Source: Kiritimatiellia bacterium (GTDB lineage Bacteria; Verrucomicrobiota; Kiritimatiellia; RFP12; JAAYLN01). Taken from it: a stretch of DNA of 64,000 nucleotides. The position numbers and the translations under genes are program-made. The notes beneath the pieces are model-generated. The model was not told the origin of the DNA. It searched no databases and saw nothing but the letters and a program-made list of their open reading frames with translations. Numbering within the stretch: position 1 is the stretch's first letter; each line of letters begins with the position of its first letter. Positions 2 to 53,705 of the stretch are shown piece after piece. The DNA lies in contig JAZQOA010000086.1 of the NCBI GenBank assembly GCA_045627605.1, forward strand, positions 15,281 to 79,280, read 5' to 3'.

Positions 2-1438
2 TGCGCGTCGATTTTCCCCGAAAACGCATCCGTCGGCCTCTTCGACAGAATCCCCTTTTCCGCGGCTTCGAACTTCGTCTGCCGCGTGACCACGACCAAC
101 ACCGCGCCACTCGACGTCCAGCTCGTCTGGATCGACTACCCGGCGACCGCAGGCGCAGGAAAAACGCTCGTCAACGACCTCGATCTCGTCGTCTCGCGCA
201 CCGGGCCGGACGGCGGCGACGCCCTTCTTTTCCACGGCAATGGCGGGGACGCGCCGGACAATCTCAACACCGTCGAATCCGTCAGGCTCGCGGACGCCCC
301 TCCCGGCGAATACACGATCACGGTGGATTGCCGCAAGACCATCCACGACTCGTCTGAAGGCGGCGCCGCGGCACTTTACGTCCGCGGAGCCTTCCGCGAC
401 GGCGAAGCCGCCGGCGGTCTGGAGGAGATTCCGCACTTCACCGTTGTCGTCTCCAACGACTTCAGCGGCCTCACGCAGACCTCCCACGCCCCGGGAACAT
501 ACGAATTCGAAGAGGGCGAAACCGCGACCTTCTCGGCAGACACCTACGCCTACGACGTCAATGCCTATGGAACGCGCACGGCTTGCCACTGGCTTTCAGG
601 CTGGACAGGCGACGGCGACATCCCCGCGGGCGGCACGGCGACATCCGTGACCTTCAGGGTCACGCAGGACAGCTCCCTCACCTGGCACTGGAACAAGGAA
701 CCGGACGAATACCTGCTCACGGTTTTCGTCGAAACCCCGGTTGATTTTCTCTACAATGGTTACTTCCCGGCCGGCTACAGCTATTATATCAGAAGCGGCG
801 CAATCCTCGACTTCGTGCTCCCTCGCGACTCCCCCTGGGGAGACCCGCAGAAGTACGCCGCCATGTACTTCAACGAGAACGTGCGGCGCTATGTAAACGG
901 GATATTCACCTTCCGCCTGGCAGGTGCCTGGCAAAGCGAGGCCGATGCTTTCGACGGCCCCTACTTCCTCAACCCGGACGGCACAATGGCCATGGAGTTC
1001 CAGGTGGCAATGACGAACGCCACCGACATCATCATCGACTACTACCCGGAAAACCAGACCTACAACGGGCTGCCCGCCTGGTGGTACGTCAAGTACCTCT
1101 ACGCCCCAACCGTCCTCGGAATGGCCTCGGGGGCCGCCGATGCCGACGACGACGGCGACGGCACCACCAACCAGAAGGAATACATGGCGGACACCAACCC
1201 AATGGATCCGAAGTCCGTCTTCAAAATCGAGGCGTTCACACCGAAGGGGATTTCCTGGAGCGGCGGACGCGAACGGCGGCAAGTCGTCGAATACGCAACG
1301 GAACTTTCACCCGGCGCGGTCTGGACGCCGATCTACACCAATCCGCCGCCCACTCCGGCCGAAAACTTCATTCCCCTGCCCCCGTCCGACGGTCCCGTGC
1401 GCTACTACCGGGTCCGGGCCATCGTGTCCGAAAAGTAA
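2..1438 (+). CDS. C-terminal part of a large secreted protein (subtilase-type post-catalytic region plus an acidic thrombospondin-type-3-like repeat). The 5' end lies outside the window.
   Basis: The frame is open from position 2, with no stop upstream of the GTG at 86. LVWIDYPATAGAGKTLVNDLDLVV resembles the region after the S8 peptidase catalytic domain. An acidic repeat DADDDGDGTTNQKEYMADTNPMDPKS lies near the C-terminus. Stop at 1436-1438. Confidence 0.5.
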   Translation, partial: CASIFPENASVGLFDRIPFSAASNFVCRVTTTNTAPLDVQLVWIDYPATAGAGKTLVNDLDLVVSRTGPDGGDALLFHGNGGDAPDNLNTVESVRLADAPPGEYTITVDCRKTIHDSSEGGAAALYVRGAFRDGEAAGGLEEIPHFTVVVSNDFSGLTQTSHAPGTYEFEEGETATFSADTYAYDVNAYGTRTACHWLSGWTGDGDIPAGGTATSVTFRVTQDSSLTWHWNKEPDEYLLTVFVETPVDFLYNGYFPAGYSYYIRSGAILDFVLPRDSPWGDPQKYAAMYFNENVRRYVNGIFTFRLAGAWQSEADAFDGPYFLNPDGTMAMEFQVAMTNATDIIIDYYPENQTYNGLPAWWYVKYLYAPTVLGMASGAADADDDGDGTTNQKEYMADTNPMDPKSVFKIEAFTPKGISWSGGRERRQVVEYATELSPGAVWTPIYTNPPPTPAENFIPLPPSDGPVRYYRVRAIVSEK

Positions 1439-14182: not shown

Positions 14183-17100
14183 TCACACCTTCCGGGCCCC
14201 GTCGCCGCCCGGACAGAATTCGCCGAGCAGATTGAGGATGCTGTCGCCGGTCACCGGCTTTGTCAAGATGGAATCGAAAAGATCTACGTCGAAGGTCGAG
14301 CCGGCGTCGGCATCGGCCGTCACCGCGACGACGGGGACGCCCGCCAGCTCGGGGTCGGCGCGCATTTCGCGCGCAAGGGCCTCGCCGTTCATGCCCGGCA
14401 TCCACATGTCCGTCAACACAATGAGGCGCCCGTCGCGACGGGATGCCTCAGCCGACTTCAAATAGTCCATCGCCTCGCGGGCGCCGCCAAACATCTCGAT
14501 GCCGTCGACAGGGACGCCCAGTCGCTTCAGGTACTGGCGCAGAATCCTGAGGTTCATCTGGACGTCGTCGACGAGTACGAAACGCAATTTGGCAATATCG
14601 GCGGACGATGCCTCGCGACGCCGCGGCTGCGTCGCCGGAGCGTCGGGGGCGCATTCCCGCGCGGAGAGGGGGGCGCATTCGGTTTCGGGCAATCCCACCC
14701 CCGGCAGGGAAAGCGTGAAGACGCTCCCTGCGCCCAGTTTGCTCTCCGCGACAAGTGTCCCGCCGGCCGCCTCGGCAAGGCGCCGCGAAATCGGAAGCCC
14801 AAGCCCCGTGCCCTTGTAGACCTTGCCGCCGCGGATGCCGCCGTCCTGCACGAACGGGTCGAAAACAGCCTGGATCTTGTCGGGCGATATCCCGATGCCG
14901 GTGTCGGCCACCTTGACGACGAGCGTGGCGGTGCCGTCGTCGGAGACGCAATCGAGCCCCGCGGAAAAATTGACGCCGCCCTTCTGCGTGAACTTGACGG
15001 CGTTGCCGACGAGGTTCAGCAGGATCTGGCGCACGCGCTCTTCGCGGAGATCGAGGAGGGGGAAGTCCTTGTCGATTTCGTAGTCCAGGGAGATGTGCTT
15101 GTCCTGCGCGCTGAACTGGAAGATCGACGCCATTTCCTCGAAAAGCTTGCGCATGTCGCAGATGCCGCCCCTCACCTCGATGTTTCTCGCCTCAAGTTTC
15201 GAGAGGTCGAGGATGTCGTTGATGAGGGCGAGAAGCGCGTTCGACGACTTCGTGATGCCGTCGAGGTAGGTGTCGCGCTCCTCCGGGGAGCAGCCGGCAT
15301 CGCGCAGGAACTCGGAGAAGCCAATCACGGCGTTGAGCGGCGTGCGTATCTCGTGGCTCATCGTGGCGAGGAAGGTGCTCTTCGTCCGCTCCGCCTTCTT
15401 CGCGTCGTCAAGGGCCTGGAGAATCTCCTGGTTCTTGCGGGAAATCTCAGCCATGGCGTTGGCGCGCTGCACCGAGAGGGCGATGAAATCGACGGCGATG
15501 CGCATGACCCGCTCGCCGGACTCGAAGAAGGGCGAACGCCGCCGCGCGTAGATGACGCCGAGGCGCGCCCAGGGCTTGCCATCGACCATGACTTGCGTCG
15601 CCATAACCGACTTGTTGGGGCAGTCCGGGGGCAGCTGGAGCGCGTCGGGGCTCCGGGCGTCGGAGAGGTTCACCATGTTCGACGACCCGAAAAGGGCGGA
15701 GCCCGCGCTGTTCATCGGGCAGTTTGCGCAGCCATTGCAGATGCCCTCGCGGACGTCGTCGAGGAACCAGTCCCGCCGGTAGCCGTCGACGCCGGCGAAG
15801 ATCACGTGGTCGCAGTTGAAGTAGCCGATGAGCCGCCGCGCGACATAGTCGATGATCTGCCACTGGTCGCGGTGGGCGACGACGAAAGACGAGACATCCG
15901 CCTTGAACGACTCCGCCGCCGCCGCGCGGCGTTCCTCCGTCACGTCGTGGATGACGCACAGCACGAGGCGGTGGCCGCTGCCCATGAGCGTCTGCTTCCA
16001 GCAGCGGAGCGTGCGCGACGACCCATCCTCGAAGACCATCGTGTCCTCGTACTGGATGGCGGCGGCGCCACCAAGCGCCTCCTCGTCGCGCTTCGCCGCG
16101 AGGGCGCTGATTCCGGGGCCCAGCAGCTCCTCGGCCGTTTTACCGATGATCTCGTCCATCCTCGCGCCGATAAGCGCGGCGTAGGCCGCGTTGCAGCGGA
16201 CGTAGCGCAAGCCGTAGTCGGCGTCCTTGAGAAAACACGGCGACGGGCTGGCATTGAAGATGCGGTTGATGAAGATGCTCTCCTCGGCGGCCGCCGCGTG
16301 CAGACCGCTGAGCTCCTCGTAGTTGAGGCGTCGTTCGATGGCGCTGCCGAAAACCGAGGCGAGCCTGCGGAAATTTCCCTTCTCAAGTTCGTTGAGGCGG
16401 CGGTCCTCGTCGAAAACGACGTTGAGCACGCCCCAGGCCGCCCCCTTGACGAAGAGCGGCACCGAGGTCATCGAGGAGGCGTTGCCCGCGCCCTTCCGAC
16501 GCGAGATGCCGTAGGCGTCCCGGATTTCGGCGAGGTCACGGGCGTTCCACTCCCTGAGGCCTTGGGAAAGAAGCTGGGCGCGATGACTGGAGAAAAGCCC
16601 GATCGGCGCCGAGACCTTGCCGTTGATGACGGCGCGGCCGTCGCGCGCCACCATGTGGAGATCCTCGATGACATTGGCGCCGTGGGCGACGTCAAGGCGC
16701 GAAAGGAAACAGACGTCGGCGTTGAAACGCTCGCGGACGATTTCAAGGAAAGGACGCGTCCCGGTGCTGCCGACATCGCCCTGGAGGGCGAGGAGGGCCC
16801 GCTCCAGCGACATTGAGTTGGCGGCGGAGATTTCGGCCAATTCGCGCCGCGCGTTCTCGGCGGTCTCCTTGGCGGCGATCAGCTCCGCCTCGCGGTCGCG
16901 GCGCGCCCTGGCGAGTTCGAGCTCGTGGCGCATCTCGATGGATTCAAGTTCGCGGACGGCGAGTTCGGTCTGGTCGAGGATCGTGACGACGGCGTTCTCG
17001 GGGCAGTCGCTGAAGCCAGTCTTGACAATGCGCATCTCCTTGTAGCGAGGCGGGGCGCCCTTGGTGCGGTAGCGGGTCGAGACCGACTTGCACCCCGAAA

Positions 17101-34336: not shown

Positions 34337-34413
34337 GGGGGAGTAGCGCAATTGGTTAGCGCACCGGACTGTCGATCCGGCGGTTGCGAGTTCGATCCTC
34401 GTCTCTCCCGCCA
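34337..34413 (+). tRNA. tRNA-Asp (anticodon GTC), CCA encoded
   Basis: Hand-folded cloverleaf. Acceptor GGGGGAG/CTCTCCC with one G-U pair. D arm GCGC-AATTGGTTA-GCGC. Anticodon stem CCGGA/TCCGG with loop CTGTCGA. T arm GCGAG-TTCGATC-CTCGT. Discriminator G plus CCA, followed by a T tract. Confidence 0.9.
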
Positions 34414-40414: not shown

Positions 40415-41278
40415 TCATGCCATGTAGCTGGCCCGGAAATCGGCGATGACGCCGCGGACGTAGTCCCTCTCCCCGGGCTGGGAAATATCGAAACCGTAGA
40501 TGTTTTCCGACAAGTTCTTGCAGACCTCGAGGTTCACGGGGCCGTCGAAGCCGCGCTTGTCCATCGCCCTGCGGAGCGCCTTGAAATCAAGCGTGCCCAT
40601 GCCCGGCTTGAGGTGTTCGTCCCACTTTCCGTGGTTGTCCGTGATGTGGAGCTCGCAGACCTCGAAGGGAATGCTGTCGAGATAAGTCTCGAAATCAATG
40701 CCCTGGCGAAGGGAGGCGACATAGGCGTGGCCGACGTCAAGGAGCAGTCCCGCACTGCGGTCGCCGCCGAAGAGGTCGTAGGCCTCCTGGAAGCGCGGGT
40801 CGCAATTGTAGAAGGAAAGGTCGTGCGGGTCGTCCGAGCCGCATGTGTTCTCAATCCCGTAGCGGATGCCGGTTCCGGCGAAATGCGCCGCATGGCGGCG
40901 GAAAAGTTCGTAGGAGAGCTTGATTTGCGAACGCCTGTTGCCCTCTTCGTCCCGGTCGTTTATGGAATCGGAACAGCAGTCGTAGAGCAAGCCGCCGGTC
41001 GCTTCGTTCCACCAGTCGATTTCGTCGTAGAGCGCCTTGAGGAAATCCTCGTCGAAGCCGTCCTTGGCGGGCGTCAGGTTGTTCTGGACGTTGCCATGGA
41101 CGCAAAGCGTCATCCCCTTCTCCTTGAGGAAAGCCGCCGCCTCGGCCTTTTCGCCCTTGTCGAACGCCATGATGTTCTGGAGGATCGAAACGCACGTGCA
41201 ACCCTCGCCATGGAGGAAATCAAAGGTGTCGGGGAGTTTCAGGCCCCCGAGCAGCCAGCTGCAATAGCCAAGTTTCAT
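40415..41278 (-). CDS. Sugar phosphate isomerase/epimerase (xylose-isomerase-like TIM barrel)
   Basis: MKLGYCSWLLGG, LLLDVGHAYV and ELHITDNHGKWDEHLKPGMGTLDF, typical AP-endonuclease-2/XI-like metal ligand motifs. Confidence 0.75.
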   Translation of the reverse strand: MKLGYCSWLLGGLKLPDTFDFLHGEGCTCVSILQNIMAFDKGEKAEAAAFLKEKGMTLCVHGNVQNNLTPAKDGFDEDFLKALYDEIDWWNEATGGLLYDCCSDSINDRDEEGNRRSQIKLSYELFRRHAAHFAGTGIRYGIENTCGSDDPHDLSFYNCDPRFQEAYDLFGGDRSAGLLLDVGHAYVASLRQGIDFETYLDSIPFEVCELHITDNHGKWDEHLKPGMGTLDFKALRRAMDKRGFDGPVNLEVCKNLSENIYGFDISQPGERDYVRGVIADFRASYMA

Positions 41279-41348
41279 TACGGATGCTGCCTTTCAAATT
41301 TGGAAAAGTATTTTAGCAAAAATCTAAGGACTATGTTATAAATGTTAC

Positions 41349-42008
41349 ATGAAAATCGAGGAATTAATCGACAAGAATGATGCAACGGCGCAGTTGGTGA
41401 AGGCCGCGTTGAACATCCTTATGGAGTCGCCCTACTTTTACAAGACAGACGACGAACGCGCCTTCCTGGCCGTTTTGCATTACAGGCAGGCCTTTGCGGC
41501 TTTCTTTGAGAAATTCTTCGGCTGGACGCTCGTCGTCGACGCCAAGTGCGCCCGCCTCTACAAGCCCAAGTGGTACAATGAGGAAATTACCGAGTCGAAC
41601 CGCGACATGTTTGGCTTCACGAAACGAGACGAATGCATTGCCTTCCTCCTTTTGCTGGAGTTCTTCGAGCGCGAATCGCGTGAACAAGGGGTGGCCGTTG
41701 ACGACCGCGAGAACCTTCGCTTTCGCTTCGGCGATTGGCTTGAGATGTCGGCTCGTCGTTTCCGCGAACTATTGCCGGACAAACGCGAGGCCTATGCCGA
41801 CGAACGCGTCCGCCAGATCCTCCGTTCCATCATGCCGCAACTCGAGCGCTATCGTTTTTTGCGCAAGGTGCGCCCAACAGGCGAGGAGGATGTCGGCGAA
41901 ACCGAGACAATCTACGAGGCGCTTCCGGCATTGTGGCACTATCAGGCCGCGCAGCTTGCGGAGCCACTATTATTTTCAGTTGACGAGAATACGAGTGAAA
42001 AGAAGTGA
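41349..42008 (+). CDS. JetB/MksE-like small subunit (KITE-type, DUF4194/DUF2398-like) of a Wadjet/Mks SMC system
   Basis: 219 aa. The segment FLAVLHYRQAFAAFFEKFFGWTLVVDAKCARLYKP matches my recollection of the JetB/MksE pattern (hydrophobic helix, G-L/W-x-L-x-hydrophobic-D, A-x-L). The context is directly upstream of jetC and jetD. No Shine-Dalgarno sequence. A TATAAA box ends 7 nt before the ATG, so the transcript may be leaderless. Confidence 0.55.
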   Translation: MKIEELIDKNDATAQLVKAALNILMESPYFYKTDDERAFLAVLHYRQAFAAFFEKFFGWTLVVDAKCARLYKPKWYNEEITESNRDMFGFTKRDECIAFLLLLEFFERESREQGVAVDDRENLRFRFGDWLEMSARRFRELLPDKREAYADERVRQILRSIMPQLERYRFLRKVRPTGEEDVGETETIYEALPALWHYQAAQLAEPLLFSVDENTSEKK

Positions 42009-42012
42009 GAAC

Positions 42013-42924
42013 ATGAGCGACATGACGGAAATGAGTTTAGCGGTGCTGATTGACGCCGACAATGTTGTGCGTTCCGACATGAATGTTGTGATCGGTGAAA
42101 TCGCCAAGTATGGCACGCCGGTCATCAAGAGGGCCTATGGCGATTGGTCGTCTTCGGCATTGTCAGGGTGGAAGGAGGTTTTGCTTGACATCGGTGCCGT
42201 GCCAATCCAGCAATATGCCTACACCACGGGCAAAAACGCAACTGACGTGGCCATGGTCATCGACGCGATGGATTTTCTTCACAATGGTGATGTCGATGGT
42301 TTTGTACTTGTTTCAAGCGACAGTGACTTCACACCATTGGCGTTGAGGTTGCGGGAATCAGGCAAAAAGGTATTTGGCATAGGCGAGAAGAAAACTCCCC
42401 GACCGTTTATCAAAGCCTGCGACAAGTTTATCTATGTCGAAATACTAAGGCCCGCGTATGTTTTGGCCCCAACCACTGTTATTGAATCCGACTCTTCAAC
42501 TTCGACTAGGCAACCGGGACCTCTTTTACCGATGTCTGTAAAATCGCATTGCCCGACACAACCCGTGGACAAGCATGAGACAACTTCCTGCATGGCCGCT
42601 CCATTGCCTGCGAATAACACTGCCTCGCCGAAAAACAATGAAAATCAAAAAGTGTCGCAGGCTACGGCAGCGTCAAGCGTCAAGAAGGCGGTCACTGCAA
42701 AAACGGTCGCCTTTATTGCGCAATGTATATCTGAAATTGCCAACGACGATGGACGATGCACATTGGCTAATTTGGGCAGTCTGATTTCGAAGAACCGTCC
42801 TGATTTCGACAGTAGAAATTACGGTTATTCCCAGTTGTCAAAGTTGCTTAAGTCTATTGACCGATTCCAAGTCACGGGCTCTGGCGCAACGATCAGCGTA
42901 AAGGACAAAAGTCAAAATTCATGA
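42013..42924 (+). CDS. NYN-domain (PIN-like nuclease, LabA/DUF88) protein with a C-terminal LOTUS/OST-HTH domain
   Basis: NYN acidic motifs AVLIDADNV, TDVAMVIDAMDF and FVLVSSDSDFTPLA. A ~85-aa low-complexity linker follows. The C-terminal OST-HTH-like segment is FIAQCISEIANDDGRCTLANLGSLISKNRPDFDSRNYGYSQLSKLLKSIDRFQV. The ATG lies 4 nt after the jetB-like stop, and the stop overlaps the jetC ATG (ATGA at 42921-42924). Confidence 0.8.
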   Translation: MSDMTEMSLAVLIDADNVVRSDMNVVIGEIAKYGTPVIKRAYGDWSSSALSGWKEVLLDIGAVPIQQYAYTTGKNATDVAMVIDAMDFLHNGDVDGFVLVSSDSDFTPLALRLRESGKKVFGIGEKKTPRPFIKACDKFIYVEILRPAYVLAPTTVIESDSSTSTRQPGPLLPMSVKSHCPTQPVDKHETTSCMAAPLPANNTASPKNNENQKVSQATAASSVKKAVTAKTVAFIAQCISEIANDDGRCTLANLGSLISKNRPDFDSRNYGYSQLSKLLKSIDRFQVTGSGATISVKDKSQNS

Positions 42925-45900
42925 AGACGCAGGAACGCTATCATATCTCGGCTGTACGCCTTGTTGAGTTTCACAATCTCGGTACGACAACGGTTTCGCT
43001 TCCGGATGGCGGCCATCTTTTTCTCCTTGGCGACAACGGTTCTGGAAAAACCACATTGCTTGACGCGATTCACTTGGTTCTTACGGCCGGGAGGGAAATG
43101 GAATTCAATGCCGCGGCGCGCGTGGCCGGGGCCAAGGATTCGGGGGGGCGCACTTACCAGGGTGTTGTGCTGCGGTACAATGCCGTGACGGGACGCACGC
43201 ATCGTGAAAGCGGCATCACATACGCTGCGTTGGAACTGCAGGCCGACAACGGACGCGTCATTTCGCTTGCCGTCGGACTTGCGGCAGACGGGATGGATGT
43301 CCAAATCGAGCGTCGGGGGGCAATCGCCTCCGTGCCGGTTGCGGAACTCCCGCTGACCATCGAGGAGGACGGCCGGCAACGCGTCGCGACACTGCGGGAG
43401 TTCAAGACAGGCGTCGATGCGTTGCCGGGTGGCCACGCATACACGAATATCAACGAATACGCCGATGCCGTAGGGGTGCGCCTTTTCGGCGGAGTCGACA
43501 AGTATGCGGACGTATGCAAGCTCCTTCGCACGGGCAAGGCCTACCGCGAGATCGCGGCGCGCGCGGCCAACTACGACGAGCTCTTTCGCCAACTTCTCGA
43601 AGATCCGTCCCGCGAGACTTTCGAACCCTTGCTGACGGGTCTTCGCGAATTGGATCGCAGCAAAGCCACATTTGACCAGATTGACGAGCGTTCGAAATAC
43701 TTGGAGGACTTGAGGCGTGAGAGCAGGCGTTTGGCCGACATCCGCCTGAAGACCGAACTTCTGGCCTGGATATCAGCCGAGCATGCGCGTAAGATGGCCT
43801 TGGCCGAGATAGAACGCCTGACGGCGTCGATTGACGCCGCCGCGGCGGAACGAATGCAACTGGAACGGGAGGCGCAGTCCGCCAAGGAGGCCATAGCCCT
43901 CGCCAAGGAGCGACTCATCGAATTGCGTTCAAAGGACGCGACGGGGCTTGTCAACCAAGAGAAACAGGCGGCGGCGCGTCTTGCCGAGGCGGAGCGAAAA
44001 GCGGGCGACGCAAAACATGACGCCGCCGAACAGCGGAAGCGCGCGACGGCGGATGCCGATGCGGCGGCCTTTGCCAGGAAGGAACGGGCACTCGTGGCGA
44101 AGCGCCATGGGGATTGCCTTCAGAAAGCCGCCAAGACCGCTGCGCTCGGCGCCGGTGCCGTCACGGACTTTTTGTTTGCCGTGGCGAATGGCGACGACAG
44201 CGGATCTGATGAAATGCCATTTGCCGCATTTCGTAAAACCATAGGCGAGGCCATTGAGACGAGAACGCGCGAGAAAGGTGATGCCTTTTATGCCGTGAAT
44301 GCAGCTGAAGATGAGGCGGAGGCTGCGCGCCAGGCACTCGACCTCCTCAAAAGCCGCGAGGAGAGTTTGCCGAATGTGCCGGGCTTTGAGCAGGCCCGGA
44401 CGGAAATACGGTCGTCACTTCTGGACGCGCGTCCAATCTACGAAGCCCTTGAACCGGCGCCTGGGTGCGATGCGAGGCATCTTGCCATGCTCGAACGGAT
44501 ATTAGGTGACGATTTCCTTTCCACGTGGATCGCCGCTGAAAGCGCGTTTGACGCCGTGCGCCGTGTCGCCTGGCAGGCAAACGACGCCCAGTCGGTGGCG
44601 TGCCGCGGCGATGCCGACGGGGTGGATGTGACATCTCTGACGCCTTGGCTCGGCTCGTATATTTCATTTGAAGAATCCGATGTTGAGGCCGTTCGCCTTG
44701 TTGCCTCGCATCTCGCCGCCAAGCTCGCCCCCGCCGATGGCGCGTTTCTCTCATTCAAGACCTGGGAGTTCCGAGCCAGGCATGGTGTGCTGGCGGACGC
44801 CAAGCCGCGTCTCATCGGGCATAAGGCGCGCGCGGCGGAACAGGCGCGTCTTGTGCGGGCGGCCGAAGAGCGACTTTCCGCCATCGAGAAGGAACTGAAG
44901 AAACTTCGCCGGAAGGCCGACGCATGCGCGGAGTCCCTTGCCGCGGTAAAGGGGCTTAACGCCGTGCTGGAGGAGGCCCGGGCTGATTTCTGCGCCGCAG
45001 CTGAAAAAGCGAGTCGTGCGCGGGAACGGGCAAGGAGTTCGAATGAGCTGGCGGAGCGTGTCGAGTCCGAGGCCCAGGCGAGGAAGGACGAGGCGGCCGA
45101 GGCGCACGCCGAACTTGACGACATCCAGCTCAAAATGCGCGCAGCTGGAATCGACGGAGCTTTGGAAAAGAAGATAGCCGATGTCGATAGGAAGGTGCGT
45201 CAGGGCGAGGATAAGGTCGCTGGCATCAATCAGCGTCTTGGCGAAACCAATGCGCGGGTGAAATCTTCGGAGAAGGCTCGCGCGGAACAACAAATGATTG
45301 TCGAGCGGGAGCTGTTACGCGCAAGCGAATGCGCCCGGCATTTTGAGGATGCGATGCCCGAGGACGGTGATGTCGCCAAGTTCGCGCACACGAAGTGCCC
45401 CGCAGCCTTTGAGCCGGGCGCTGATTTCAATGGCTTGCGCGAGGGCTTTGTTTCCGCCGGGAAGGTTTCCGAGACCGTCATTGAGCAGAAAATCCGCGAT
45501 GCGAAAGGCGAATTCTATTCATTTTCCTTCGATCGCGTCGCGAATCGCCTGGCAGATCGACGGGGGAGCTCGCTTGACGACGTGATCACAGACGAAACGC
45601 GCCGGCTCGACGAACTTCGCGGTGTGATAAATCAGAAGACCCGCGAGGTTTTCGAACGGATTTTCAAGGGCGAGGTGATGCGGCGGCTCAACATCAACCT
45701 TCTTGCCGTGGAGAATCTGGTGCGGCGCATACAGAAGAAACTGGCTGGTCGTCGCTTTGGCTCGAACCGATATGCCTTCGAAATTTCACCCGTACCCGAA
45801 TACGAGGCTTTCGTGGAGCTTGTCAGACATGGCAATCTCTTCGATTTGGATGACAGCGACGAAAAACTACGCGAATGCCTGGAGTCGCACCGGGATGAAA

Positions 45901-46403
45901 TTATGAATGCGGATCTTGATTGCGTACCGGATATCTTCGACTACCGCAAGTGGTTCCGCTTTCAGTTGAAGGTGGTCGTTGAAAACGACGAGGGACGCGT
46001 CATAGATCGCAAAGTGAAGAGCATGGGCTCCGGTGGCGAGCAGGCTGTGCCGAACTACCTGCTGATCCTCACGGTGGCGGAATTCCTCTACCATGGTGGC
46101 GAAGCAAATGGTTTGCCAAAGCTTTCCCCGCTTTTGTTCGACGAGGCATTCTACGGAATCGACGCCGCGCGCCGCGATCAGTTGCTGGCGTTTGCCGAAG
46201 ACCTAGGTCTCCAGCTATTCGTGTCATCACCGGACCAGGACGGCGTAAAACGCGAGATTCGCCATTCGGTTTCGCTCATCGTTGTCAAGGACGAACACCT
46301 CGATGTCCACCTAAGTCCTGTCCTTTGGAACAATGCGCCAGTTCAGACGGACATGCTTGGCGAGACAACGGCAGTGGGCATGACCGTGTTGGAGGAGATT
46401 TAA
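42921..46403 (+). CDS. SMC-like ABC ATPase, JetC/MksB-type (TIGR02680-like)
   Basis: 1160 aa. Walker A GDNGSGKTTLLDA. A central A/E/R/K/L-rich coiled-coil of several hundred residues. ABC signature MGSGGEQAV. Walker B/D-loop PLLFDEAFYGID. Confidence 0.8.
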   Translation: MKTQERYHISAVRLVEFHNLGTTTVSLPDGGHLFLLGDNGSGKTTLLDAIHLVLTAGREMEFNAAARVAGAKDSGGRTYQGVVLRYNAVTGRTHRESGITYAALELQADNGRVISLAVGLAADGMDVQIERRGAIASVPVAELPLTIEEDGRQRVATLREFKTGVDALPGGHAYTNINEYADAVGVRLFGGVDKYADVCKLLRTGKAYREIAARAANYDELFRQLLEDPSRETFEPLLTGLRELDRSKATFDQIDERSKYLEDLRRESRRLADIRLKTELLAWISAEHARKMALAEIERLTASIDAAAAERMQLEREAQSAKEAIALAKERLIELRSKDATGLVNQEKQAAARLAEAERKAGDAKHDAAEQRKRATADADAAAFARKERALVAKRHGDCLQKAAKTAALGAGAVTDFLFAVANGDDSGSDEMPFAAFRKTIGEAIETRTREKGDAFYAVNAAEDEAEAARQALDLLKSREESLPNVPGFEQARTEIRSSLLDARPIYEALEPAPGCDARHLAMLERILGDDFLSTWIAAESAFDAVRRVAWQANDAQSVACRGDADGVDVTSLTPWLGSYISFEESDVEAVRLVASHLAAKLAPADGAFLSFKTWEFRARHGVLADAKPRLIGHKARAAEQARLVRAAEERLSAIEKELKKLRRKADACAESLAAVKGLNAVLEEARADFCAAAEKASRARERARSSNELAERVESEAQARKDEAAEAHAELDDIQLKMRAAGIDGALEKKIADVDRKVRQGEDKVAGINQRLGETNARVKSSEKARAEQQMIVERELLRASECARHFEDAMPEDGDVAKFAHTKCPAAFEPGADFNGLREGFVSAGKVSETVIEQKIRDAKGEFYSFSFDRVANRLADRRGSSLDDVITDETRRLDELRGVINQKTREVFERIFKGEVMRRLNINLLAVENLVRRIQKKLAGRRFGSNRYAFEISPVPEYEAFVELVRHGNLFDLDDSDEKLRECLESHRDEIMNADLDCVPDIFDYRKWFRFQLKVVVENDEGRVIDRKVKSMGSGGEQAVPNYLLILTVAEFLYHGGEANGLPKLSPLLFDEAFYGIDAARRDQLLAFAEDLGLQLFVSSPDQDGVKREIRHSVSLIVVKDEHLDVHLSPVLWNNAPVQTDMLGETTAVGMTVLEEI

Positions 46404-47611
46404 TGCCGGACGATGACCGTTTATTTATCCCCGCGGGGAAAATCACCGCTGCATTAAACCGCGCCCCGGCGTTGCGCCCTTTTCTGGCACGTCTTGCCCG
46501 TCGTGCCTTGAAGGGCCAGCCCATGCCGAATTCCTTTACGGCTGGGAAAATCGACTACGTGGCGCAACAGGAGCTGAACATCCTGCTCCGCACCGTCACG
46601 GTGCGCTCTGCGGAAGGGAACGTTCACGGCAAGATGCCGGTGCGGCTTGCAGAGCCTGAAGTCTGGCTACCCGTCGCGAAAGCACTTGGGATAGAGGCGA
46701 ATGAATCGGCTGAAACGCCCCGCGCCATGTTTGCCCGGCTGGAATGGTCGCATCCAGGGAAAATGGGCGTTCTTCGCGCGCTTGAACATGAGCAAGAGGT
46801 GTCAAAATACCTGAAATCAGGTGAACGATGCCGCGAATGGACCAAGCTCTTCAATCTGGCCGTTGAGGTTGAATCATTGCCGACATCGCAAGTGCTGACG
46901 CTTTCCCAGCTTGGTTCGTCGGCATTCAACGACAGCAAGGTTCTGCGGTCAGGGGCGTTGCGGCGGCAGCTTTGCTTGATTCTCGCGGCTTTTTCAGGCA
47001 TGTTGCCAGAAGACGAACGTGGGGTGTTTGGCTCATTTGGAATAGTTGAGAATCCCTACACCAGCTCCGTGACTGTTTTTGCCCCGTTCGCGTTCTGTGA
47101 TCGCGATGGCGTTGTTTTCGATTTTCCCGCCCGGATGTTTGCGGCTGGGCTTGCCTGCCAGCTGCCCCTTGAGACCGTCGGGCATATGACCCGCGTTGAA
47201 TGGCGCGGAGCGGAAAAGAAGGTCGTGACAAGCGAAAACGCAGCGCCACTTGTGGCCTTTGTCGAGAAGCGAATCCCCTGTGTCTACACCGAGGGGTATC
47301 CAAATACTGCGGTACTACGTCTGCTGGAACTTATCTCTTCTTGCGGGGTGACGGCGAGCCACTGGGGCGACGCCGACTTGGACGGGTTGCTGATCGCACA
47401 TGCGGTCTCAACGAAAATTTCCGTTACCCAGACCATGGCGCTCCAAATCATAAACATGCCCGGAGCGCTCAAGGGCATTCCGCTAACTTCGGAGCAAAGG
47501 AACAGAATCGAGCGTTTCATTGACACGCGGCCTATGTCGGAATATACCGGTCCTCTTCGGCAGCTTCTAGCAAGGGACTGCTGGTACGAACAGGAGGCAT
47601 TCCCGTTATGA
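46403..47611 (+). CDS. JetD/MksG-type protein with a C-terminal Toprim-like nuclease domain
   Basis: 402 aa. C-terminal Toprim signature with Glu in VVTSENAAPL and DxD in HWGDADLDGLLIA. The start overlaps the jetC stop (TAATG, 46401-46405). The upstream GTG/ATG-extended ORF-track start (46325) lies inside jetC. Confidence 0.75.
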   Translation: MPDDDRLFIPAGKITAALNRAPALRPFLARLARRALKGQPMPNSFTAGKIDYVAQQELNILLRTVTVRSAEGNVHGKMPVRLAEPEVWLPVAKALGIEANESAETPRAMFARLEWSHPGKMGVLRALEHEQEVSKYLKSGERCREWTKLFNLAVEVESLPTSQVLTLSQLGSSAFNDSKVLRSGALRRQLCLILAAFSGMLPEDERGVFGSFGIVENPYTSSVTVFAPFAFCDRDGVVFDFPARMFAAGLACQLPLETVGHMTRVEWRGAEKKVVTSENAAPLVAFVEKRIPCVYTEGYPNTAVLRLLELISSCGVTASHWGDADLDGLLIAHAVSTKISVTQTMALQIINMPGALKGIPLTSEQRNRIERFIDTRPMSEYTGPLRQLLARDCWYEQEAFPL

Positions 47612-49182
47612 AGCGCAAGCAAGAAGATTTGGCGGGCGACCTCTTTGCAGTCGGATTGCAAGGAGACGACAGGCCGACATCGCCCCCGGCAAAGCTCATT
47701 GACGCACCGTTGGTCAATGAGACCGCGACTTGGCTTGCCGCTCGCGCCACAACGCTTGGCAGTCTTTTCGCAAGTGATCGCGCCGCCGAGTATGTGGCGA
47801 TTTTACGGGCCTTTGCGCAATTCCGGGCAGGTCATGAGCCGGAGCCTTTGCACGAAGACCTTTTCAATCTTGTCTGCGGAGACGAGGCGACAAGCGAGGA
47901 CGAGGCGCTTTTCAAATCTGACATCAGGCAGTTGAAGGACTGGCAGCTTGTCACGGACCGGATCGAAAAAGAACGGTTGCGCGGGTATCGGGACACGCGC
48001 CGCACCAAGTTCCGCTATCACCTTCATGACGATGCCGTGGCATTTGTCGCCTGGCTTGAGGAACGCAGAATCCAGGATCTTCATCCAGACGACGGGAACA
48101 TCACCAAGTATCTTCTTGACCGGCAGTGTTCCCTGCTAAATGAACTCTGTCGGTTGACGCGCAAGGTCGTGCCGTCAAAGGTCGATCATGAAATCGCCGG
48201 AGACGTCCTCTACAGGATTGACCAAGTCGGCCGCTTTGTCGAGGCCACGGCGCATGACCTTCAGGTGCTGAACCTTCGCCTGCTGAGTTTCGGCGCAGAT
48301 GCCTTCAAGGTGGATGAAGCCAGGGAAATAGTCGATGAACTCGGCGTTTTCCTGGAGCGGTTCGGTCGGCATTTTAACGATTCCCGCTCAGAGATAACAG
48401 TTCTGATCGCCACCCTTCGGCGAGAGGTTCAGATGTCGCGTTTCAAGGCCTGCGCGGAGCGAATGCGAGAAGACGCCGCGAAGTATCGCCATATCGCTTC
48501 CAGAAATATTCCAGATGCCGAAGCCATATTGTCCGACGCTTCGAGTTTCTATGGCGACAATGGCCGCCTGATTGAGTTGATGGGGAGGGTTGTCGATTCT
48601 GCGCGCAAGGTCTGGGGACGGCTCAACGCCAAGTTGCGCGAACTTGAACGCCGCAATCACCGTCTTGATGATGTAAAGGCCAGGCTTGACGATTTCGCCA
48701 GGCTAAGCGAGGACGAGGTTCCGTACGGCTGGATGCGTCGTCTTCTGGAGACGGCCTCGCTGCGAGGTGACGCGCAAATCCGGCCTGATGGCGAAAAATC
48801 ACGCCCGCCTATGCCGAAGCGCTCGTCGAATGTCAGAGCCAAGCGTGATGTCACCTGGATCACACCTCGCAAAGTCGGTGAAAAAGCGGACGTCCGTTCA
48901 ATAGCGGAGGCACGAGCTCAGCTGATGCGTGACTGGATGAACGAGCGCGGCATCATGCCAGACAAGAAGGACGAGTGCCGATTGTCATCTGGTTCTTACG
49001 TAAAGTATGAAGATTTCAAGATGATCATGAAGCTTGTGCAGGCGGTTCGCCTTGGCAACGGGGAAAAGGCGAAGCGCTTGCTTGGAGTGACTGGCGAACA
49101 ACTTCCAGAGCGAGTCGCCATTGCCAAGGATGGCTTTTCACTGACACTGGACGACATCCGCCTGTTGCCATTTGAGGCTTGA
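47608..49182 (+). CDS. JetA/MksF-like (kleisin-type, DUF2397/TIGR02677-like) subunit, located last in the operon
   Basis: 524 aa. The N-terminal winged-helix-like region is SLFASDRAAEYVAILRAFAQF...IRQLKDWQLVTDRIEKERLRGYRDTRRTKFRYHLHDDAVAFVAWLEE, followed by long helical segments. The ATG overlaps the jetD stop (ATGA, 47608-47611). The family call is from memory of the HMM pattern, not a search. Confidence 0.55.
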   Translation: MKRKQEDLAGDLFAVGLQGDDRPTSPPAKLIDAPLVNETATWLAARATTLGSLFASDRAAEYVAILRAFAQFRAGHEPEPLHEDLFNLVCGDEATSEDEALFKSDIRQLKDWQLVTDRIEKERLRGYRDTRRTKFRYHLHDDAVAFVAWLEERRIQDLHPDDGNITKYLLDRQCSLLNELCRLTRKVVPSKVDHEIAGDVLYRIDQVGRFVEATAHDLQVLNLRLLSFGADAFKVDEAREIVDELGVFLERFGRHFNDSRSEITVLIATLRREVQMSRFKACAERMREDAAKYRHIASRNIPDAEAILSDASSFYGDNGRLIELMGRVVDSARKVWGRLNAKLRELERRNHRLDDVKARLDDFARLSEDEVPYGWMRRLLETASLRGDAQIRPDGEKSRPPMPKRSSNVRAKRDVTWITPRKVGEKADVRSIAEARAQLMRDWMNERGIMPDKKDECRLSSGSYVKYEDFKMIMKLVQAVRLGNGEKAKRLLGVTGEQLPERVAIAKDGFSLTLDDIRLLPFEA

Positions 49183-49359
49183 CAGTCATTGTCAAGCTGT
49201 TGACTGTTAATGTTTTACAATAAACCGAAGGCTCCGCATACAGTCAACAAACTCCTTCGTCTTCGACGGCACTGGCACCAGAGCCGTTGGCCCCAGTGCT
49301 TTGCAAACCGGTATTCCCGGGTGATGCATCTGTTTCCCCTGGGATATTCACGACCGCAG

Positions 49360-50949
49360 TCAAACTGCGGCCCGTACGACAGTGCCCTCGACGAAGCGGC
49401 GGGTGCCGCGTTCGAAGGAGAGCCCCACGAGCCATACGGGCTTGTCGGGCGCAAGGAAAGGCTCGGCGTACTGCTTCGCCGTCGCCTGGTCCATCGCGAC
49501 CACTGCGGGACGGTCCACCTTCAGCTCGAAGATGTAGGTGCCGCACGGATGGTCCGCCACGAGGTCGATGCGCCCGTCGGATGTCGTCCGCTCCGGCTCC
49601 ATGCGGAAGCCCTGCCCTGCCAGCAGGAACTGTAGGTTCCGCGCGAACGACGCCTCATGCACCGTCTCCTCGGTCGAGCCGTACGACACACCTGCATAGA
49701 GCGACTTGAGTCCCCTGAAAAAATCGTCCCACTCGCAGTCCAGCAGCCGTCCGCCAAGCCGAACCGCCCACGCCGTGTCTTTGTCAGCCGCCAGCCCAGC
49801 CATCAACTTCGAGAGATCACGGCGCACCTCGGCGTCAGGAACGCCCAGCACGTAAGACCCGCGTCTGGAATCGTAATCGAGAATCGTCAAGTAGCCAGTC
49901 TGGTAGAGCATCGCAGGCGCACGAAGATTCGTCAGGTCGCTCACGTCGAAGTCCTCGTCTCGAATGCCGGTCAGCCGCTCTGGGTCGATCGCCAGCAGGT
50001 CGCCGCGCTTGAGAACGTTCATCAGCATCGACGCCCGTCCTGTCTTGGACCAGTAAAACTCGAACTCATCATCGCACTTCGCGAGATTGAGGTTGATCGA
50101 CACGGGGTTGTAGACCTTCTCCCCGCGCTTCTTCCAGAACCGATAGCCGTTGTAGAGCCGACGGAGCTCCGCACGGTAGGCGTCGTAGGCAAGCCCCATC
50201 TTCTCAGCCTGCATGCGCATGCGATCGGAGAAGTACTCGTCGAGCTCAGCCTCGGTATAGCCGAGCATCATCGCGTACCCATCTTCAAGGGAAAGGTCAA
50301 TCAGGTTCGAGAGCGTCGAGAAAATCGACATCTTCGTGAACTTCGAGACACCCGTGATCATCAGGAAACGGTACTTCTCGGTACGGTCCTTGAGCTGTCC
50401 GTAGAACGTCGCGAGAAGTGTGCGCACCTTCTCAGCGAACGGGATGTCATGCAGGACCTTTGCTACGGGATCGTCGTACTCGTCCACCAAGATGACCGGA
50501 AGCTCACCCTCCCCGCGCATCGCCTTCGCCGCGAGCACATCGATGGCCGCACCGAAGTTCTCGCCCGGATCTTTCGCCGGATCGTAATTGCAACCGGCTT
50601 CGGCAATCACAGCCCCGATGCGCGCGGCAAACGACCTCTCGAAGTTCTCGTAGCCCGTCGCGTTCGCGCACTGGCCGAAGTTGAAGTGCAGGACGGGATG
50701 CCTCTTCCACTCGTAGTCAGTCTTCGCGATCGCAAGGCCCTCGAAGAGGTCCTTCCTACCGTTGAAGATCTCCTTCAGCGTGGTGATCATCAGCGACTTG
50801 CCGAAACGCCGCGGACGCGCAATGAACAGGCACTTGCGACTGGACGTCACCAGCCGATGCAGGTATGCGGTCTTGTCCACATACAGCATCTGCGGGTTCG
50901 CCGTGCGAATCGCAAGAAAGCTTCCGGTGTCCTCAGGTATCGGTTTCAT
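49360..50949 (-). CDS. AAA-ATPase-like domain protein with a C-terminal PD-(D/E)XK nuclease domain (PF09820+PF08011-type architecture)
   Basis: N-terminus FLAIRTANPQMLYVDKTAYLHRLV...LFIARPRRFGKSLMITTLKEIF. C-terminus SDGRIDLVADHPCGTYIFELKVD (D...E-x-K). ATG at 50949, with a GTG at 50952. Confidence 0.7.
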   Translation of the reverse strand: MKPIPEDTGSFLAIRTANPQMLYVDKTAYLHRLVTSSRKCLFIARPRRFGKSLMITTLKEIFNGRKDLFEGLAIAKTDYEWKRHPVLHFNFGQCANATGYENFERSFAARIGAVIAEAGCNYDPAKDPGENFGAAIDVLAAKAMRGEGELPVILVDEYDDPVAKVLHDIPFAEKVRTLLATFYGQLKDRTEKYRFLMITGVSKFTKMSIFSTLSNLIDLSLEDGYAMMLGYTEAELDEYFSDRMRMQAEKMGLAYDAYRAELRRLYNGYRFWKKRGEKVYNPVSINLNLAKCDDEFEFYWSKTGRASMLMNVLKRGDLLAIDPERLTGIRDEDFDVSDLTNLRAPAMLYQTGYLTILDYDSRRGSYVLGVPDAEVRRDLSKLMAGLAADKDTAWAVRLGGRLLDCEWDDFFRGLKSLYAGVSYGSTEETVHEASFARNLQFLLAGQGFRMEPERTTSDGRIDLVADHPCGTYIFELKVDRPAVVAMDQATAKQYAEPFLAPDKPVWLVGLSFERGTRRFVEGTVVRAAV

Positions 50950-51047
50950 CACGCAAGATTATACCACATTCTGCGACGGCGCGACAATCCGACTTCACCT
51001 AACGGCAATGGTAGTGCCATAGCCCCTCATTTTGCCATACTACTCCC

Positions 51048-52277
51048 ATGCGGAGAATTTGCCTCTACAGTTTACCTCTTCTCCTCCTCGCCGCCGCCTG
51101 TCCGACGGCGACGGTGGTGGTTGCCGACGGCGACACCGTGACCAGCGAACCCGCCGGCATCGACGACCTCACCTTCGTCACCGCCGACCTCGACCCCGGC
51201 GTCGCCTACCACGTCCGCATCTTCAACGGCCTCTGCGGCTACGTCGACGTCACCGTCAACAACCTCGCGCTCGTCTCCGAAACCGAAGCCGAATGGCCCG
51301 CCGACAGAACCCGCACCGACATCGGCGTGGGCGAGGTGGTGAGACTGTCGCTTCGCCCGACTCTGCAGTCGAATGTAACATGGTCTTGCTTCGGTTCCCT
51401 CATAAAGCAAGAAGCTAATGAAAGTGTAGTAAAAGTTAGAGCTACAGACACTCATGGATCGGCAAAGGTTTCAGCAATGATCGGCGACATCCGACTCAGT
51501 ATGCAGTTTATGGTCTTTAGTCCAACAGGGTATTCGTTTGCAGAAGCATACACTTACGGTGGTGCCAACGCATACCCGGGATTTGCCGAGGTCGAGGGGC
51601 TAATCGATGTTTACCTAGCTCCGACAAATGTTAGCTTTGCAAACGTCTGGATGGAGGAAGGGTATGCAGAGGCCACTAATGTGTCTGGATGGTTCCTATG
51701 GCCTGGCAACAGTTGCAATCATGATTCAGAGCATGGTGCTTTCATTCCATGTGAAATTTCCAGTCGCAATTTCTTTACGGACATGATTGGCAGTGACTTC
51801 AAGCCAGGTGATTGGATTGACGGCGAAATGAAATGGGAAATACCCACTTCATGGTGGATTATTCCAGAGGATGGTGCTTCGACCAATCGGCATCAGATGT
51901 CAAGACCCAGAGCGCAAATGTTCTCAATTCGGCGCAACGGAACTTTCACAATAACAAAGTTTGGAACGGGGTTAACTCGAACGCCCCGAGGAATGGTTAC
52001 GGAAATACCGGAAAAGATACGACCGATAAAAGATGCGCCGCGAGACAAACCCCTGCCCCCTCCTCCTCCAGCTTCATTCATGTCCCCACTTGAAATTAAA
52101 CCAAATGATTCCCCGGACCGCATCAAGGAGGTAATGGGCATAAATGAAACGATAGCGAGCAACTACGCTGCCAGAGTCGCATCATATCAGGAAGACAAGG
52201 TAAAAAGAGCGTTCTTTCGAGAATTTGATTCGTTCTACAATCAGCTCCATGTTTTCGTGGACTATGTTTTGCAATAG
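51048..52277 (+). CDS. Hypothetical secreted protein or lipoprotein (409 aa) with a proline-rich C-terminal segment
   Basis: Signal-like N-terminus MRRICLYSLPLLLLAAAC. No recognisable family. There is an abrupt GC drop inside the ORF near 51.37 kb. Confidence 0.5.
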   Translation: MRRICLYSLPLLLLAAACPTATVVVADGDTVTSEPAGIDDLTFVTADLDPGVAYHVRIFNGLCGYVDVTVNNLALVSETEAEWPADRTRTDIGVGEVVRLSLRPTLQSNVTWSCFGSLIKQEANESVVKVRATDTHGSAKVSAMIGDIRLSMQFMVFSPTGYSFAEAYTYGGANAYPGFAEVEGLIDVYLAPTNVSFANVWMEEGYAEATNVSGWFLWPGNSCNHDSEHGAFIPCEISSRNFFTDMIGSDFKPGDWIDGEMKWEIPTSWWIIPEDGASTNRHQMSRPRAQMFSIRRNGTFTITKFGTGLTRTPRGMVTEIPEKIRPIKDAPRDKPLPPPPPASFMSPLEIKPNDSPDRIKEVMGINETIASNYAARVASYQEDKVKRAFFREFDSFYNQLHVFVDYVLQ

Positions 52278-52305
52278 CCATGCATATCCTTTACGGAGTG
52301 ATACG

Positions 52306-52678: not shown

Positions 52679-52707
52679 TTGCGGGATGCCGGGCAATCCA
52701 GTATAAT
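52679..52707 (+). promoter_or_regulatory. Candidate sigma-70 promoter for the phosphodiester glycosidase gene
   Basis: TTGCGG (52679-52684), 17-nt spacer, TATAAT (52702-52707). An AAGGAG ribosome-binding site at 52721-52726 lies 7 nt before the ATG at 52734. Confidence 0.45.
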
Positions 52708-52733
52708 TGAGAAAGCATCCAAGGAGATTTTCC

Positions 52734-53705
52734 ATGAAAAAGTCACTCGTCGCCGTTTTTCTCGCCGCCACCGCGGCCTGCGGGGTCTTCGCCGCCTCGA
52801 CCAAGCTCGACAAAAAAGCCGTCGCCTGGTTCCCGAAGGAAATCCAGGAGGCGTCGCCCTCCATCGCCACGCGGATCGACCTCGCGCCCGGCGTGGAATA
52901 CGGCTACGTCTATTGCAAAAAACTTTTCGGCCATCCGGGCGACATCCACGCGGTCCGCATCGACCTCGCCAAAGCCAAGGTCAGGCCGCACATCGACGAA
53001 GGCGCCCTGCTCCCCGACATGAAGCTCCGCCTCCGCACGACCTCCGCCGCCGCAGCCGCGCACGACGCGCTCTTCTCCGTCAACGGCGGGTTCTTCAGCT
53101 GGAAGGACAACCCCGAAAAGAAAATCAAGGCGCTCATCCCCTACTACCGCATGAAAATCAACGGCAAGGTCCTCGAATCCAATTCGGGCGGCACACTGGG
53201 CCTCGCCTTCTCAAACGACGGTTCCAAGGTCAAGGTCGGCAGGGTCTCGGACGCCGAACTTGAGGAGTGGGACAACTTCATGGCCGGCGAGGGACTGGTC
53301 TCCGGCGGGAAATGCTGTCTCGACTGGAAGCGTCCCGAGGGCATCAAGACCAAGCCCGAGGCGCCGCGTACGCTCGTCGGCATGGACGCCGAGGGCAAAT
53401 ACCTCTGGGTCATCGTCACGGGCGGACGCAAAACAGGCAAAATGCCGTCAATGGGTCTCTCCTACCTTGACGGCGCAGACCTCCTCCTGTGGTTCGGCTG
53501 TGCCGAAGGCGTCAACATGGATGGCGGCGGCTCGACGACGCTGGCCGTTCGCAAGGACGCCCTCAAGGGTGCCAAGAAGCCCTACACGCCTGAAGCGCAC
53601 CCCGCTGCGGCGGCCAAGGACTACTTCATCTTGAACTGCACCAGCGACGGCAGCGAGCGCGCCGTCCTCGACCACATCCAGTTCTGGGATTCGAAGTCGA
53701 AGTAG
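52734..53705 (+). CDS. Phosphodiester glycosidase family protein (DUF2233/NAGPA-like), secreted
   Basis: Signal peptide MKKSLVAVFLAATAACGVFA. Motifs FSVNGGFF, TLVGMDAEGKYLWVIVTGGR and AEGVNMDGGGSTTLAV. Confidence 0.7.
   Translation: MKKSLVAVFLAATAACGVFAASTKLDKKAVAWFPKEIQEASPSIATRIDLAPGVEYGYVYCKKLFGHPGDIHAVRIDLAKAKVRPHIDEGALLPDMKLRLRTTSAAAAAHDALFSVNGGFFSWKDNPEKKIKALIPYYRMKINGKVLESNSGGTLGLAFSNDGSKVKVGRVSDAELEEWDNFMAGEGLVSGGKCCLDWKRPEGIKTKPEAPRTLVGMDAEGKYLWVIVTGGRKTGKMPSMGLSYLDGADLLLWFGCAEGVNMDGGGSTTLAVRKDALKGAKKPYTPEAHPAAAAKDYFILNCTSDGSERAVLDHIQFWDSKSK

Follow-up and report, generated by a model that had tools for sequence, protein, structure and literature searches.

The 64,000-nucleotide window analysed here (positions 15,281 to 79,280 of contig JAZQOA010000086.1, assembly GCA_045627605.1, Kiritimatiellia bacterium) carries a divergent Wadjet operon in which an additional gene is placed between jetB and jetC. 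This gene codes for a MARF1-like protein composed of a NYN and a LOTUS domain. With moderate confidence we interpret it as a facultative, co-expressed gene for an autonomous ribonuclease that is embedded in the Wadjet operon and adds an RNA-level layer to it; it is unlikely that the protein serves JetABCD as a structural subunit. In Wadjet systems, which act against plasmids, JetABC is the loop-extruding sensor of the SMC type, and JetD is the Toprim nuclease that cuts the captured circular DNA.

Five tightly packed plus-strand open reading frames (ORFs) span positions 41349 to 49182 of the window (Table 1). Their coordinates and translations were checked, and re-reading the sequence returned the same co-directional ORFs and the same four junctions as an earlier note on this DNA. 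The stop codon of jetB and the start codon of NYN-LOTUS are separated by a 4-nt gap (TGA-GAAC-ATG, 42009–42012). NYN-LOTUS and jetC share an ATGA overlap (42921–42924), jetC and jetD a TAATG overlap (46401–46405), and jetD and jetA again an ATGA overlap (47608–47611). Such spacing suggests translational coupling of the five ORFs. The Wadjet genes stand in the order B-C-D-A, with NYN-LOTUS between B and C.

Families were assigned with hidden Markov models from Pfam, PADLOC and NCBIfam (TIGR). These searches place ORFs 1, 3, 4 and 5 as JetB, JetC, JetD and JetA, as had been proposed from the letters alone. JetB matches PF09661 (DUF2398; 40.4 bits, 2.6e-10, cut-off 26.9) and PF13835 (7.5e-7), with JetB2 as best PADLOC model (5.3e-12). 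Its length is about half that of type II JetB models and it is probably a single KITE protein, whereas JetB of type II consists of two KITE units in tandem (10.1101/2025.03.10.642339). For JetC the matches are PADLOC JetC1 (1.1e-45), PF13558 (SbcC_Walker_B, 2.6e-14) and PF13555 (AAA_29, 3.9e-12), and TIGR02680 is hit at 4e-22, far under its cut-off. The motifs quoted in the earlier note are present, namely GDNGSGKTT (Walker A), GSGGEQ (signature) and LLFDEAF (Walker B), and the full-length alignment to JetC models suggests a long coiled coil.

JetD matches PF09664 (DUF2399; 31.5 bits, 1.8e-7, cut-off 23.4) and PF09983 (1e-4), and its best PADLOC model is JetD1 (8.4e-19). It holds the expected TSENAAP and GDADLDG motifs, and in an alignment of 30 homologues T276, E278, N279, A280, A281, P282, G322, D323 and D325 are invariant. 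The AlphaFold2 (AF2) model of this protein (mean predicted local distance difference test, pLDDT, 91) gave topoisomerase VI-A folds (CAP + Toprim) as best matches in the PDB (E 2e-5), which for a predicted structure agrees with JetD having been described as a CAP + Toprim protein. A solved JetD was not retrieved in this fold search, and comparison of the JetD and JetC sequences and of a JetD profile with PDB chains gave no meaningful match to solved Jet structures. JetA (PF09660, DUF2397, 34.1 bits, 1.9e-8, cut-off 28.5; TIGR02677, 8e-10; PADLOC JetA2, 4e-4) is assigned least firmly of the four and is backed by synteny in 59 related operons.

The type II equivalogs of NCBIfam, TIGR02677 to TIGR02680, score 36.6–77.9 bits against cut-offs of 124.65–462.85, and the operon is therefore filed as a divergent Wadjet lineage and not as canonical type II. 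With Wadjet type II (JetABCD/EptABCD, DUF2397-DUF2398-DUF2399, e.g. Neobacillus vireti JET-II) it shares the Pfam families of JetA, JetB and JetD, the SMC-like motifs of JetC, the Toprim domain of JetD and the arrangement of four genes in one operon. It differs from type II in the order B-C-D-A, in the extra gene between B and C and in a JetC whose 1160 aa are near the type I model lengths, the best PADLOC models being JetC1 and JetD1. Wadjet type I (E. coli GF4-3, P. aeruginosa, Corynebacterium MksBEFG) matches the window in the sizes of JetB and JetC and in these best models, whereas JetA and JetB of the window match type II families. All four sequence hallmarks of Wadjet (SMC JetC, kleisin JetA, KITE JetB, Toprim JetD) were found. 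Judged by sequence, the operon can be taken as a genuine but divergent Wadjet system with type II-like sequences and type I-like subunit sizes. By analogy with type I, loop extrusion followed by cleavage of circular DNA is presumed.

For the second ORF, the NYN and LOTUS domains named in the earlier note were recovered with PF01936 (9.5e-42) and PF12872 (OST-HTH/LOTUS, 5.1e-14). Across the aligned NYN-LOTUS homologues D14, N17, D78, D103 and D105 are invariant and can be read as the acidic active site of the NYN domain; the family profile matches PDB entries 2qip, 2kpm and 2kzv. The two domains are joined by a variable low-complexity linker rich in S, T, P, N and K. In most embedded members this linker comprises about 55–85 aa and is ~20% conserved, compared with about 20–30 aa in stand-alone homologues, and it is mainly the longer, variable linker that sets the embedded clade apart. 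The protein was also considered as a known PADLOC defence model, which was rejected: only PDLC01154 was hit, unconvincingly (E 0.0026), and no HEC or PDC class matched. Architecture and acidic residues are the same as in bacterial MARF1-like proteins with LK-nuclease/NYN and OST-HTH domains. These have been proposed to be stand-alone RNA-degrading enzymes and are sporadic but widespread, with no conserved neighbourhood (Anantharaman & Aravind 2010, PMC2848206). The clade of the window differs from them in its jetB/jetC neighbourhood and its longer linker. A bacterial LOTUS domain was reported to bind G-quadruplex (G4) RNA (PMC7498356). From this family literature, ribonuclease activity and RNA binding may be expected for the embedded protein as well.

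The search with the JetD-like protein yielded more than 400 homologues. Taking one genome per GTDB species led to 59 loci (L001–L059), nearly all from metagenome-assembled genomes of Kiritimatiellia, Lentisphaerae and Verrucomicrobia, many of them from gut and rumen. JetB of the window is 69–81% identical to that of the closer operons and 54–58% to that of the more distant ones; for JetA the values are 52–58% (65% over one partial copy) and about 30–43%. Three cyclic permutations of the genes occur, A-B-C-D, B-C-D-A and D-A-B-C, and read as a circle the order is A-B-C-D in every case. In these 59 operons from species-representative genomes 40 jetB/jetC junctions could be scored, and NYN-LOTUS was present at none of them (0/40).

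The junctions differ strongly in what they accept. Spacers above 350 nt, most of them with genes, were seen at 12 of 40 C/D and 4 of 40 B/C junctions, compared with 1 of 30 for A/B and 0 of 27 for D/A. Cargo was located between jetC and jetD in L001, L009, L011–L015, L025, L033 and L047, and between jetB and jetC in L001, L020 and L034. The inserted genes code for Schlafen AlbA_2 + HATPase_c_4 + HTH, AAA_14 + DUF4143, ORF6N + PLD, RhuM + PLD, DUF1016/YhcG PD-(D/E)xK, NERD, PIN7, GmrSD, T5orf172 and PRiA4_ORF3 + SEC-C proteins as well as several unknowns. In PADLOC, AAA_14 + DUF4143 corresponds to PDC-S01 (2e-86), YhcG/DUF1016 to PDC-S02 (2e-135), ORF6N + PLD to PDC-S05 (9e-108) and GmrSD to HEC-06 (5e-39), and the slot occupants are mostly nuclease or defence-candidate families. 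The jetC/jetD and jetB/jetC junctions are thus insertion hot spots, while A/B and D/A are almost never interrupted.

Homologues of NYN-LOTUS itself form a very large family with at least 8000 candidates. A top tier of 61–69% identity and 276–312 aa is separated by a gap in E-values from the remainder (at most 57% identity, mostly ~245–256 aa). Apart from the window, NYN-LOTUS between jetB and jetC occurs in at least seven contig families. L065, L074 and L162 show the order B-NYN-C, and in L065 and L074 a ClpB gene precedes jetB, so that the operon begins with jetB as in the window. In L067–L070 and L073 a Schlafen gene follows, giving B-NYN-Schlafen-C. The Schlafen gene occupies this slot with or without NYN-LOTUS, as it stands alone in L001. 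Its product in L001 is 71% identical to that in L068 (59/60 over the first 60 residues), compared with only 30% between L073 and L068, a pattern which suggests cassette exchange beside NYN-LOTUS.

Decayed operons were found as well. L061 and L062 show B-NYN-D without jetC, followed by HicAB, and L063 and L064 have large internal deletions in jetB and jetC. Each arrangement was found in two samples, and all four loci keep NYN-LOTUS at full length, with none of the conserved residues missing. Retention of an intact NYN-LOTUS where jetC is deleted gives an indirect hint of an autonomous defence activity. In L061 and L062 jetA is apparently lost or truncated, with an 83-aa ORF after jetD.

Homologues of at most 57% identity stand alone, e.g. 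beside an FMN reductase gene, after a restriction-modification/HipA island, after TauE, or between enolase and serS in L080 and L081 (Kiritimatiellae). A scan of metagenomes of the Joint Genome Institute seeded with the embedded clade serves as negative control: it gave only homologues of at most 47% identity and no new embedded case, all 80 of 80 loci (42–47% identity) being without Jet genes within 10 kb. A PHROG search further revealed a phage family, phrog_37744, that matches NYN-LOTUS at 4e-56.

The embedded homologues show dN/dS (ratio of nonsynonymous to synonymous substitution rates) of 0.07–0.17, and values of 0.09–0.17 were obtained for the lineages with broken Wadjet (L061–L064). 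NYN-LOTUS is under purifying selection in both. In the window and six other loci its G+C content at third codon positions (GC3) is 0.06–0.21 lower than in the jet genes on either side; the window copy has 0.54, with an overall G+C content of 48.7%.

The history of the JetC subunit was followed in a bootstrapped neighbour-joining tree of one protein (JetC residues 1–740). JetC of the window is sister to L008, which has no NYN-LOTUS, with 98% bootstrap, and the NYN-bearing L065 and L067 form a separate clade with 100%. Both belong to a clade with 99% support that comprises the window, L008, the NYN clade, L007, L001, L003 and L005, the last four of which lack NYN-LOTUS. A single origin of the NYN-bearing operons including the window was rejected (0% bootstrap). 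This value together with the sisterhood to L008 requires at least two gains or several losses. Either the gene was gained once and lost several times or it was moved between homologous operons, which a neighbour-joining tree cannot separate. Conservation of the extra gene throughout the lineage carrying it, as a five-component Wadjet would require, does not hold, given its patchy presence in the 99% clade, its absence from the sister L008 and the empty junctions of the species-level survey.

NYN-LOTUS runs in the direction of the core genes on either side of it and is found in only some of the homologous systems; it also has homologues that are not embedded, and the junctions of its host accept other cargo. 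Optional presence, a shared slot, persistence in decayed systems, odd composition and a stand-alone, partly phage-borne outgroup together constitute the pattern of an embedded defence gene. The PDC and HEC candidate classes were derived by 'guilt-by-embedding' in Hma, BREX, DISARM and type I restriction-modification systems (Payne et al., 10.1101/2024.01.29.577857); Wadjet is not among the hosts in that study. Same-strand nesting, variable presence and the existence of non-embedded homologues are common to those genes and to NYN-LOTUS of the window, and sibling Wadjet operons carry homologues of PDC-S01, PDC-S02, PDC-S05 and HEC-06 in their junctions. HEC-09 also contains a NYN domain, preceded by an N-terminal HTH-like region, an architecture unlike NYN + LOTUS. 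In contrast to the HEC and PDC genes, NYN-LOTUS of the window belongs to a separate clade that has long been specific to its host.

Several observations weigh against reading the gene as an autonomous passenger. All eight of the examined top-tier members (8/8, window included) lie exactly between jetB and jetC, and this strict placement exceeds the expectation for random cargo. Between jetB and NYN-LOTUS most loci have either an overlap or a gap of at most 13 nt (227 nt in L162), whereas the other embedded genes examined are less tightly packed, e.g. with ~300 nt before the Schlafen gene of L001. The synonymous divergence (dS) of NYN-LOTUS, 0.2–1.0 and saturated against the window, is similar to that of the adjacent jetB, and the linkage of both genes must therefore be old. 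A second type of NYN protein, with two TFIIB-type Zn-ribbons (~348 aa, without LOTUS; no PADLOC match), is encoded directly 3' of jetD in three A-B-C-D operons, L010, L013 and L051; NYN nucleases thus recur with this Wadjet lineage. Finally, the deletions in L061–L064 could be too recent to prove independent selection of NYN-LOTUS.

These findings keep alive the proposal of the earlier note of a five-component Wadjet, in which NYN-LOTUS would truly work with JetABCD as a fifth partner peculiar to this sub-lineage, an explanation we regard as rather unlikely. It draws on the strict slot specificity, on the tight or overlapping packing with both jetB and jetC, on the long co-inheritance and co-divergence with jetB, on the distinct linker and on the recurrence of a NYN family after jetD. 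As a partner, the protein might act on plasmid transcripts or R-loops by sensing or degrading them, might process an RNA that tunes the complex, or might dock to JetB/JetC via its linker. The absence of NYN-LOTUS from L008, L007, L001, L003 and L005 and from all scorable junctions speaks against it, as do the gene's persistence where jetC is deleted, the swapping of neighbouring cassettes, the use of the slot by unrelated genes and the GC3 below that of the jet genes. Moreover, both domains of the protein closely resemble those of stand-alone homologues (NYN 65–76% identical), and no new interaction surface is evident. Of the five-component proposal there remains a real, intact gene that recurs in a dedicated jetB/jetC clade; as a conserved component of the lineage it does not stand, and its integration into the complex is unsupported. 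The neighbourhood survey that had been suggested gave a divided answer: the species-representative genomes are without the gene, yet the uniform placement of the top tier excludes a one-off insertion.

For the embedded, autonomous nuclease that we favour, the following course can be envisaged. JetABC would act as the presumed loop-extruding sensor and JetD would cut the captured circular DNA. NYN-LOTUS would be expressed from the Wadjet promoter via translational coupling and most likely works alone as an RNA-targeting nuclease, with the NYN domain as catalytic part and the LOTUS domain binding G-rich or structured RNA. The invaders met by JetABCD would in this manner face a second layer of defence, at the level of RNA. 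A closer connection, in which the embedded protein couples the recognition or destruction of invader transcripts, R-loops or G-rich RNA to plasmid sensing by loop extrusion, appears unlikely to us.

It is improbable in our view that NYN-LOTUS is a non-immune hitch-hiker, i.e. a housekeeping-type paralogue of RNA turnover or a selfish, addiction-type gene in a permissive junction, which would persist since its removal is neutral or costly. The stand-alone homologues among housekeeping genes (enolase/serS), the sporadic and widespread occurrence of the family without conserved neighbourhood (PMC2848206), the lack of a convincing PADLOC model and the failure of the embedded NYN protein HEC-09 to give defence in phage assays (10.1101/2024.01.29.577857) would fit such a role. 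Strong purifying selection over saturated synonymous divergence, strict position specificity and the company of mostly nuclease or defence-candidate families in the slot argue against it.

An assembly artefact or a mis-called ORF as source of the five-gene arrangement is hardly conceivable, and nothing was found in its favour. An independent Logan contig, L060, has the same NYN-jetC junction, with an identical NYN protein and a JetC of 98.9% identity. The 90%-identity clusters of NYN and JetD each include members whose longest contigs measure 60,407 bp and 47,761 bp, and divergent contigs of several samples are arranged in this way too.

The literature search returned no paper that associates Wadjet with NYN or LOTUS, in line with the earlier note, which knew of no such protein in the described subtypes. 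Wadjet and embedded genes are each known; the literature searched describes neither the two together nor a NYN-LOTUS clade specific to this host nor the permuted Wadjet lineage. Bacterial MARF1-like NYN-LOTUS proteins are widespread and without known function, and the tie to the jetB/jetC junction is a first contextual clue to a conflict-related role. Embedded defence genes appear to occur in Wadjet too, and the C/D and B/C junctions can be mined for new candidates. The survey also brings out a Wadjet lineage that has received little description; it occurs in Kiritimatiellia, Lentisphaerae and Verrucomicrobia of gut and rumen and combines a half-length JetB with permuted gene orders. Should NYN-LOTUS be co-expressed cargo and no more, the example would still be useful, though an incremental advance. 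Cooperation with JetABCD would make this an SMC immune complex of a new kind, and a partner coupled to RNA would be the first RNA-level module of any such complex and give bacterial MARF1-like proteins their first assigned function.

Table 1. Positions of the operon genes, of the parts of the NYN-LOTUS protein and of further features (window coordinates unless a locus is named).
Feature	Position	Strand	Size	Remarks
Presumed promoter region	41279–41348	+	70 nt	AT-rich, intergenic, 5' of jetB; role from position only
jetB-like KITE subunit	41349–42008	+	219 aa	
MARF1-like NYN-LOTUS gene	42013–42924	+	303 aa	
NYN domain	residues about 9–142			
Linker	residues about 151–229 (42463–42699)			
OST-HTH/LOTUS domain	residues about 234–291			
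jetC-like SMC-family ABC ATPase	42921–46403	+	1160 aa	
jetD-like CAP + Toprim nuclease	46403–47611	+	402 aa	
jetA-like kleisin	47608–49182	+	524 aa	
Inverted repeat (GCTTGACA / TGTCAAGC)	49177–49197	+	8 bp	overlaps jetA stop codon; read off sequence
NYN + Zn-ribbon gene	L010:11210–12256			
NYN + Zn-ribbon gene	L013:10729–11775			
NYN + Zn-ribbon gene	L051:10897–11937			
Schlafen AlbA_2 + HATPase_c_4 (+HTH) gene	L001:3798–5267			jetB/jetC slot
Schlafen AlbA_2 + HATPase_c_4 (+HTH) gene	L068:1750–3339			jetB/jetC slot
Schlafen AlbA_2 + HATPase_c_4 (+HTH) gene	L073:1221–2669			jetB/jetC slot

Upstream, the presumed promoter region separates jetB from a divergent minus-strand gene (40415–41278). 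A sigma-70 consensus scan gave no plus-strand promoter 5' of jetB, the consensus being uninformative for this phylum, and the counts of the promoter and terminator consensus scans were not above those in shuffled sequence. The operon runs to 49182, and the first credible gene beyond it is convergent. The inverted repeat at the jetA stop codon, which does not appear in the output of the terminator scan, may mark this end.

Three plus-strand ORFs beyond jetA were rejected as further operon members, and no homologue of any of them was found in the related Wadjet loci. Those at 49210–49635 and 49657–51141 are R/H/P-rich, match no family and run antisense to a gene at 49360–50952, and are regarded as spurious. 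The third, at 51048–52277, gave no match in Pfam, PADLOC or PHROGs. The N-terminus of its 409-aa product (MRRICLYSLPLLLLAAAC) resembles a signal peptide or that of a lipoprotein, and with a GC3 of 0.55 the ORF fits the island. The gene at 49360–50952, directly downstream of the operon on the minus strand, codes for 530 aa with predicted AAA-ATPase_like and PDDEXK_9 domains.

The backbone genes of the window have a GC3 of 0.82–0.91, compared with 0.62–0.70 for the jet genes and still less for NYN-LOTUS. A low-GC3 island (0.54–0.70) thus extends from about 41300 to 52300 within a high-GC3 backbone. Since the jet and NYN-LOTUS genes lie below the backbone, the operon is placed on an acquired island, and its composition points to horizontal acquisition of the Wadjet operon. 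The island is bordered by a xylose-isomerase-like TIM-barrel gene, the divergent neighbour of jetB mentioned above, and by a NAGPA-domain gene (52707–53705). A tRNA-Asp is located at 34337–34413.

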